Below, piece by piece: positions 58,737 through 59,411 of a stretch of 64,000 nucleotides of DNA. This DNA is from Octopus vulgaris (Eukaryota), in NCBI GenBank assembly GCA_951406725.2, contig OX597817.1, forward strand, positions 140,492,001 to 140,556,000. Direction: 5' to 3'. Every line of letters starts with the position of its first letter. Position 1 is the stretch's first letter. The notes under the pieces were generated by a model. The model did no database searches, had not been told where the DNA came from, and was given only the letters and a program-made list of their open reading frames with translations. The position numbers and the translations under genes are program-made.

Positions 58737-58775
<39 letters not shown>

Positions 58776-58938
58776 ATAAAAATGATAAGACAACAAAAGA
58801 AAGAAAGAGACCTCGATATTATGTAAATAGAGGAATTTATCTGTAAATGTAATATGTGACAATTATTCGGTAGCCATGATAAAACTCCGAGGTTCGGATG
58901 CCGAGGTGGAAATCCACGCTGCCATCTCTTCAGTTATC

Positions 58939-59053
58939 CGGCCATATCACGTTGAAAAGACCGGTTCTCGTCCGATCACCGAAGTTAAGCAACGTCGAGC
59001 CTAGTTAGTACTTAGATGGGTGACCTCTTGGGAAACCTAGGTGCTGTAAGCAT
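58939..59053 (+). rRNA. 5S rRNA copy (probable pseudogene; first ~5 nt missing)
   Basis: CGGCCATATCACGTTGAAA..ACCGGTTCTCGTCCGATCACCGAAGTTAAGCAACGTCGAGCCTAGTTAGTACTTAGATGGGTGACC.CTTGGGAA.CCTAGGTGCTGTAAGCAT is an animal 5S sequence with box A (AGTTAAGC) and box C (TAGATGGGTGACC); 115 nt; T7 at 59063-59069. Confidence 0.92.
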
Positions 59054-59075
59054 CATACATTGTTTTTTTCCGATG

Positions 59076-59145
59076 GCCGGATAACTGAAGAGATGGAGGC
59101 GTGGATTTCTACTTCGGCATCCGAAACTCGGAGTTTTATCACGGC
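59076..59145 (+). ncRNA. Type I hammerhead ribozyme motif (PLE-type)
   Basis: Stem I GCCG-GATAA / TTATC-A-CGGC; core CTGAAGA (59085-59091); stem II GATG...CATC(C); GAAA (59123-59126); near-palindromic stem III ACTC-G-GAGT; GUU triplet, predicted cleavage after 59135. The antisense copy in the left arm has GAAC instead of GAAA. Confidence 0.7.
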
Positions 59146-59242
59146 TACCGAATAATTGTCACATATTACATTTACAGATAAATTCCTCTATTTACATAAA
59201 ATCGAGGTCTCTTATTTTCTTTTGTTGTCTTACCATTTTTAT

Positions 59243-59303
<61 letters not shown>

Positions 59304-59307
<4 letters not shown>

Positions 59308-59411
59308 GAGGTAGTCAGAATTTTGGGTAATTACATATTTTGCGCTTTCATCTCATTTCGGAGATGAAAGCGTTGAATAAATAATTATCCAAAATTCCGA
59401 CTACCTCCTTT
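59304..59411. repeat. 108-bp imperfect hairpin abutting (TA)n
   Basis: AAAGGAGGTAGTCAGAATTTTGGGTAATTA...CGCTTTCATCTC-ATTTCG-GAGATGAAAGCG...TAATTATCCAAAATTCCGACTACCTCCTTT. Confidence 0.85.

Follow-up and report, generated by a model that had tools for sequence, protein, structure and literature searches.

The locus described here lies in a 64,000-nt stretch of Octopus vulgaris DNA, referred to below as the window, and consists of a palindrome set in a (TA)n tract with a 5S rRNA copy enclosed between its arms. As the original prediction had described, the inverted arms (58771-58945 and 59073-59247) are 175 nt each; they carry 10 mismatches, and the inverted repeat reaches 208 nt at 95% complementarity when the target tracts on the left (58738-58770) and on the right (59248-59304) are counted in, the whole element being predicted to fold into a hairpin of -310.9 kcal/mol. 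The left arm, on the minus strand, runs from 58770/58771 to 58945, its limits drawn from the arm alignment and from counts of tail ends, and is an inverted end of a Hydra-clade Penelope-like element (PLE) that comprises a hammerhead and a 64-nt tail. The right arm, on the plus strand, occupies 59065-59248 as a 5'-truncated copy of the same end, made up of pseudo-LTR (pLTR) and tail, and would correspond to the first-strand cDNA. Directly to the right of the TA tract there is a MITE-like element of about 107 bp (59304-59410) with terminal inverted repeats and 81% self-complementarity, of which no further copy was present among the loci fetched.

The enclosed 5S copy, on the plus strand, gave the sole Rfam match at gathering score within the window (RF00001, 58934-59052, 98.7 bits). 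It had been put at 115 nt with 9 nt of flank; both parts stand, at slightly different lengths, the copy being 114 nt (58939-59052, nt 6-119 of 5S, and of a G61/A102 variant by comparison with dispersed copies) and the flank being a 10-nt 3' trailer of the 5S precursor (59053-59062, plus strand), whose class motif is TCACACATT(G) followed by a T-run. The run of seven T's comes next (59063-59069). Microhomology is present at both 5S junctions: on the left CGGCCAT (58939-58945, plus strand), which, as predicted, is both the last seven bases of the left arm and nt 6-12 of 5S, and on the right the T-run. The latter is not just the terminator of 5S that it had been taken for. In intact PLE copies CATAGCATTTTTCCG immediately precedes the arm. 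The T-run and CCG at 59065-59072 accordingly belong to the PLE, whose part of the right arm begins by 59065; at least T5-CCG having been supplied by the PLE, the T7 is therefore an overlap between its T5 and the U-tail of the 5S trailer. The original prediction had overlooked this share, along with a mutation in the left hammerhead core and the fusion of 5S to many other retroelements.

The arm itself is a high-copy repeat of the genome searched (2.8 Gb, 227 contigs), as seen in the best 40 of 3638 candidates scored. A coding fragment between the arms of one copy, L119, led (20 loci fetched) to the decayed near-full-length elements L147 and L156, in which an ORF is followed by a TG-rich 3' region and then by the arm; in other copies the arm continues into the ORF start. 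These parent elements are about 3.2 kb long and carry RT and EN motifs, all copies seen being decayed or broken. A search for the arm at the ends of RT+GIY-YIG ORFs had been suggested, and the arm indeed proves to be the pLTR and tail, that is, the hammerhead-bearing end, of elements whose RT and EN are recognized by motif. The ORF pieces contain RWK, DKT, QFDIV, MGSYDG, CxCX5C, a Y-G-E-FK EN core without CCHH, and CxxC: RWK lies near the N-terminus in L147, L156, L160, L161 and L165, DKG has become DKT in L148, L160 and L165, and a CxCX5C linker precedes a C-terminal EN that has no CCHH but a CxxC before the conserved E in L147, L156 and L160. Because Pfam gave no match for four ORF fragments or for three homologues, the RT and EN identity rests on these motifs and on alignment to the 23 longer homologues found for the parent protein, the best of which is 43% identical.

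By motif and alignment, then, the parent can be assigned to the Hydra clade of PLEs, as an abundant family that inserts in (TA)n. The clade is defined by RWK, DKT, the CxCX5C linker, an EN without CCHH, and CxxC (PMC8557442), and its other two marks, a (TA)n target and a hammerhead in the pLTR, are likewise found here, 61 of the 84 tail ends running into in-phase (AT)n. With Hydra-1_Obim of Octopus bimaculoides, whose protein the parent protein resembles when judged by eye, and other Hydra-clade PLEs the family shares RWK, DKT, the CxCX5C linker and the lack of CCHH, and with the clade the (TA)n target, the type I hammerhead, inverted 5'-truncated copies and a tail at one end only, a feature already known (PMC8557442). 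Its hammerhead stems differ from those in the File S2 row for Hydra-1_Obim when compared by eye, which makes this a separate family, of about 3.2 kb; its tail is 64 nt long where those of the published elements are 30-40, and small-RNA capture, seen here, is not mentioned in the available text of PMC8557442.

Arm ends in this family fall at about position 111 or 175, and how they are paired bears on the origin of the palindrome. Among 61 loci not selected on arm ends there are 31 inverted pairs, comprising 27 short/tail, 3 short/short and 1 tail/tail, a distribution that departs from independent choice (binomial p 1.5e-5); because pair ends and inner sequences are unlike, two RNA-templated events are taken to be the family norm. 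The window pair is tail/tail. Its arms moreover join the target out of phase, in a register found at 3 of 79 tail-target junctions (84 tail ends minus 5 that read on into PLE), two of which are the window arms, the rare-register count thus being based on three junctions. In the other tail/tail pair, L139, two variants are common to both arms and absent from all other copies (2/139, 2/95). The window arms have no private substitution in common and share only the common allele 144T, so substitutions do not prove that they had one template. The right arm and L236 share the uncommon 25A and 128A, absent from the left arm; 25A recurs (5/145), and the idea of two different template RNAs from subfamily variants was rejected, the sharing with L236 being judged within chance. 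A further idea on the PLE 5' end was also given up, that of a cap-derived G marking one start site: among the matches listed (100 of 170 exact ones) a G precedes the GCATTTTT run in 7, and junctions spread from about -24 to -8. In many inter-arm loops (L136-L166, L264-L293) a piece of the ORF start is fused to the arm close to its T-run, by which partial tandems might arise.

The right arm carries, as originally described, a putative type I hammerhead with palindromic stem III (59074-59147, plus strand, constrained fold and descriptor). Its intact core at 59085-59091, GAA at 59123-59125, palindromic stem III at 59126-59134 and GUU triplet, with predicted cleavage after 59135, provide the CUGANGA and GAAA core, the UH site and stems I and II expected of this type, with U at position 17. 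The left arm, where A15.1 has changed to C at 58892, fails our own type I descriptor, whose only match on both strands of the whole 64-kb window is at 59085; the core is kept in 71 of 103 family copies. The proposed Infernal check thus had a divided outcome: RF00001 recovered the 5S copy, but no Rfam hammerhead model matched the right-arm motif at E<=10. Folding as a monomer requires constraint (-18.3 kcal/mol against -24.0 for the free fold, i.e. 5.7 above it) and stem III forms a self-duplex of -9.7 kcal/mol; a dimer is therefore predicted to be necessary, as it is for other PLE hammerheads, whose cleavage in vitro is weak (PMC4209133).

Related metagenome loci contain the motif in 28 of 77 cases on the sense strand and in 0 of 77 on the antisense strand, with unlike stems I and II; pairing is built into the descriptor, and the strand bias serves as the control for these counts. 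Stem pairing is thereby kept amid sequence change, with an identical stem III in two of these loci, and the four subfamily changes inside the octopus hammerhead either keep a pair or fall at unpaired sites, none being two-sided. The marine metagenome Hydra-like loci (L324-L400) have type I hammerheads with palindromic stem III and mostly A17 (20/28). The motif derives from the PLE, and at the present locus it is a putative ribozyme; in the PLE PAc, cleavage is dispensable for insertion in vitro (PMC11167929).

Pol III terminates at oligo-T. Since it would stop at the T7, and since any read-through RNA would trap both ribozymes in a 175-bp hairpin, this copy can be regarded as dead and the locus is probably inert.

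The 5S copy belongs to a class that is widely dispersed. A pattern of 5S end plus trailer had 78 exact matches, all dispersed. Of 100 dispersed 5S copies whose 3' end is intact, in a sample picked by similarity to the window 5S and trailer, 92 bear the trailer. Under family labels of our own, the partners of these 92 are a SINE_A head (56), a short SINE-like 3' end (16), a second SINE head (5), a (GAT)n-tailed end (5), another head (1) and a PLE (1, the window locus), with 8 copies lacking an assigned partner; the 53 clean SINE_A junctions show 30 different linkers. Dispersed trailer copies are marked by G61/A102 and are 5.0% diverged, whereas the assembled 5S array (C4:35.2-35.3 Mb) has A61/C102. 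The suggested comparison with the flanks of true 5S arrays found the trailer in 0 of 32 array copies, and its recurrence on dispersed copies indicates, at the level of sequence, that it is a real 3' extension of 5S, the source gene being absent from the assembled array.

Several related observations concern small RNAs elsewhere in the genome. At least 92 dispersed trailer copies (L021-L114, L167-L202) are joined to several SINE or LINE-like ends, and several 5S copies of 97-99% identity bear array-type trailers, which suggests that chimera formation continued. The 5S cluster at G000:C4:35.20-35.34 Mb (L027, L034-L042, L214-L228) contains copies in either orientation, with spacers and terminators of several types. 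In L230, L231, L094, L095 and L098 the 5S is truncated at nt 35-92 and continues as SINE_A sequence; two of these, L230 and L231, are near-identical and lie 420 kb apart. Target-site duplications (TSDs) of at least 9 nt at 5S-SINE fusions number 9/85 against 5.4 in shuffles, and 5/58 against 3.0 in a second count, both without a plain-SINE control; because they show no excess over shuffles, a single-event origin of these fusions rests on adjacency. U6 behaves similarly, 16 of 30 fetched copies (L294-L323) being joined to the same SINE partners as 5S; L311 joins U6 to a tRNA-like head, and U6 forms a small tandem at C1:139.42 Mb. A U6-to-arm junction pattern had no match, and L298, in which U6 is followed in turn by a SINE end, (AT)n and a PLE end, probably reflects sequential insertions.

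A central question is whether the window locus is one chimera or a member of a family. Searching with the right junction returned only the window locus as spanning 5S to arm (1 of the best 40 of 2283 candidates), and an exact genome-wide pattern, which diverged copies could escape, had 2 matches, one of them without 5S. The left-junction search found the window locus and L208 (2 of the best 40 scored). At L208 (G000:C1:111928228-111928477) one side is a short PLE arm; the other, oppositely oriented, is an antisense 5S that carries a trailer of the array type and directly adjoins (TA)n; junction, trailer and orientation are all unlike those of the window, so these are two independent 5S/PLE chimeras and not a family. 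The search of the 5S-T7-arm junction that had been proposed as the deciding one thus finds a single junction, and the window locus is one old chimeric insertion, not a spreading 5S-headed family. The original alternative, a SINE3-like family in which a 5S promoter drives a hammerhead module moved in trans by a PLE, is highly improbable: the internal promoter region of 5S is kept and SINE3 families do exist (bioRxiv 10.1101/2025.02.02.635956), but the junction occurs at one locus and L208 differs from it in every respect named above. SINE3 has the 5S head in common, but many of its copies share one 5S-body junction and have head and body uninterrupted by a Pol III terminator, whereas here the unit is unamplified and the T7 (59063-59069) lies ahead of the body and its hammerhead. 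Non-LTR retrozymes likewise carry type I hammerheads from PLE pLTRs, but as tandem direct units with a complete hammerhead each (bioRxiv 10.64898/2026.07.22.740005), where the present arms are inverted and one core is mutated. What the locus does show is the arrangement of a small-RNA/retroelement chimera, with the small RNA directly 5' of a retroelement end at a unique junction. An assembly fold-back would be a very improbable source of such a structure: contigs from four public runs compared with 58860-59160 included none bridging either junction among the matches listed, but the arms differ at 10 sites, the flanks are unlike, and related anatomy recurs in 31 other inverted pairs.

The reading we favour, and consider reasonably probable, is that of an old 5'-truncated Hydra-PLE insertion in (TA)n during which the RT jumped to the U-tail of a 3'-extended 5S RNA, the second arm arising by fold-back of the cDNA. 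The endonuclease would have cut (TA)n, and the RT would have begun at the tail start site. It would next have copied the 183 nt of PLE RNA now seen in the right arm up to the U5 run, where the A-run of the cDNA can pair with the terminal U's of the 5S precursor, the T7 being the presumed switch point. The 5S would then have been copied back to about nt 6, and the cDNA end, ATGGCCG, would have paired with CGGCCAT in the same strand, priming the copying of the arm as DNA through the target junction; the new (TA)n end could finally have annealed to the opposite side of the break. If first-strand cDNA is cut at 5S nt 6, its predicted DNA fold (-16.6 kcal/mol) pairs exactly those seven bases at the 3' end. 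A PLE RT switch onto 3'-extended 5S with closure by an inverted arm at the 7-nt match was the first of the two origins originally proposed, and it gains support from the pLTR nature of the arm, from the recurrence of the trailer and from the microhomologies. Because the pair is tail/tail (1/31) and in a rare register (3/79), both of them small counts, snap-back at CGGCCAT, with the right arm serving as template for the left, is the probable route to the second arm; given the family norm of two RNA-templated events (27/31 short/tail), such a snap-back would be an exception.

The alternative with most in its favour, which we regard as less likely than snap-back though not negligible, is twin priming: the same switch onto 5S would have taken place, but the left arm would be a second RNA-templated cDNA begun at the other nick and joined at the 7-nt match. 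It agrees with the unlike ends, and often unlike inner sequence, of the 27 of 31 pairs. It also agrees with the excess of non-CpG subfamily variants shared by arms of the same insertion (45 observed against 15.8 +/- 4.0 permuted; 39/45 pairs, at least 40 shared columns). L208 fits it too, as a locus with an arm on one side and, on the other, a 5S primed directly in (TA)n as the primary template in opposite orientation. PAc extends both strands in vitro, with no strand difference in start site, from which the pair count here differs (PMC11167929). Twin priming must account, however, for a tail/tail pair with the same rare register on both sides (1/77 among other tail junctions); one read-through RNA carrying source flank, or an arm conversion early or later in the life of the copy, could likewise yield such matching ends. 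Two other origins appear improbable. Another retroelement could later have placed a 5S retrocopy in the middle of a PLE palindrome already present, LINE-type machinery often copying trailer 5S in this genome, but no duplication of its own surrounds the 5S copy, as had been suggested for recognizing a later insertion (any TSD of the whole unit is masked by (TA)n), and the expected continuation of the left arm is missing exactly at the 7-nt match. Nearly all trailer copies, besides, place the 5S 5' of a partner, and the divergences agree, the arms differing at 10/175 positions and the 5S at 4/114 from its class. Hammerhead cleavage leaves a 5'-OH, which would suit ligation of 5S to PLE RNA before reverse transcription of the fused molecule, by an RtcB-like reaction as described for U6/L1 (PMC6789731). 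Against it, the junction is at the shared T-run, some 70 nt upstream of where cleavage is predicted, and PLE 5' junctions, which often fall in the last 25 nt or so ahead of the arm start, show no pile-up at the cleavage site (2/124 at 62-69, in a sample biased to full arms).

Parts of this picture have precedents. Self-priming and template jumps have been proposed earlier for PLEs, on antisense RNA, in connection with captures between pLTRs in Adineta vaga, which share with the window unrelated cargo between PLE ends and microhomology at the 5' junction; the cargo there is genomic or genic DNA with TSDs, with no rRNA mentioned in the available text (PMC3846280), whereas the present unit contains a defined Pol III RNA, the junction being at its U-tail. 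Small-RNA chimeras are known for L1, L2, RTE and SINEs, and U6/5S chimeras of this kind share with the window a one-off Pol III RNA placed 5' of a retroelement end (PMC4476161; bioRxiv 10.1101/2025.02.02.635956). In the same sources 5S/L1 chimeras are in many cases antisense, with twin priming given as their origin, as might apply to L208, while the window 5S is in sense, nearly full length and with its 3' trailer kept; its partner is a PLE, an inverted arm closes the unit, and any TSD would be hidden in the (TA)n. The literature search found no PLE/5S or PLE/small-RNA chimera, in a scope that left out most subscription papers and Repbase Reports, and absence from print is thus unproven. The ingredients, namely Hydra PLEs, inverted pLTRs, capture between pLTRs and small-RNA chimeras, are known; their combination and the end-pairing counts seem new.

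The window locus likely records how PLEs capture other RNAs. We put forward a wider reading only tentatively: the PLE RT may be a template-jumping, self-priming enzyme with two routes to inverted ends, namely two start sites, one per nicked strand (27/31), and a rare snap-back yielding tail/tail pairs, with the window locus and L208 as the first small-RNA chimeras ascribed to PLEs and at least 92 copies keeping a 3'-extended 5S variant missing from the array. The formation of inverted ends and tails in PLEs has been called unresolved (PMC8557442, PMC11167929), and this locus and its family offer countable fossils of it and predictions that can be tested: a single start site for each strand, jumps at U-runs, and snap-back for symmetric pairs. 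Chimera formation with small RNAs, known for L1, L2 and RTE, would thereby extend to a telomerase-related RT, and the capture of a small RNA by a PLE may be a first step toward a possible Pol III-headed, PLE-dependent element.
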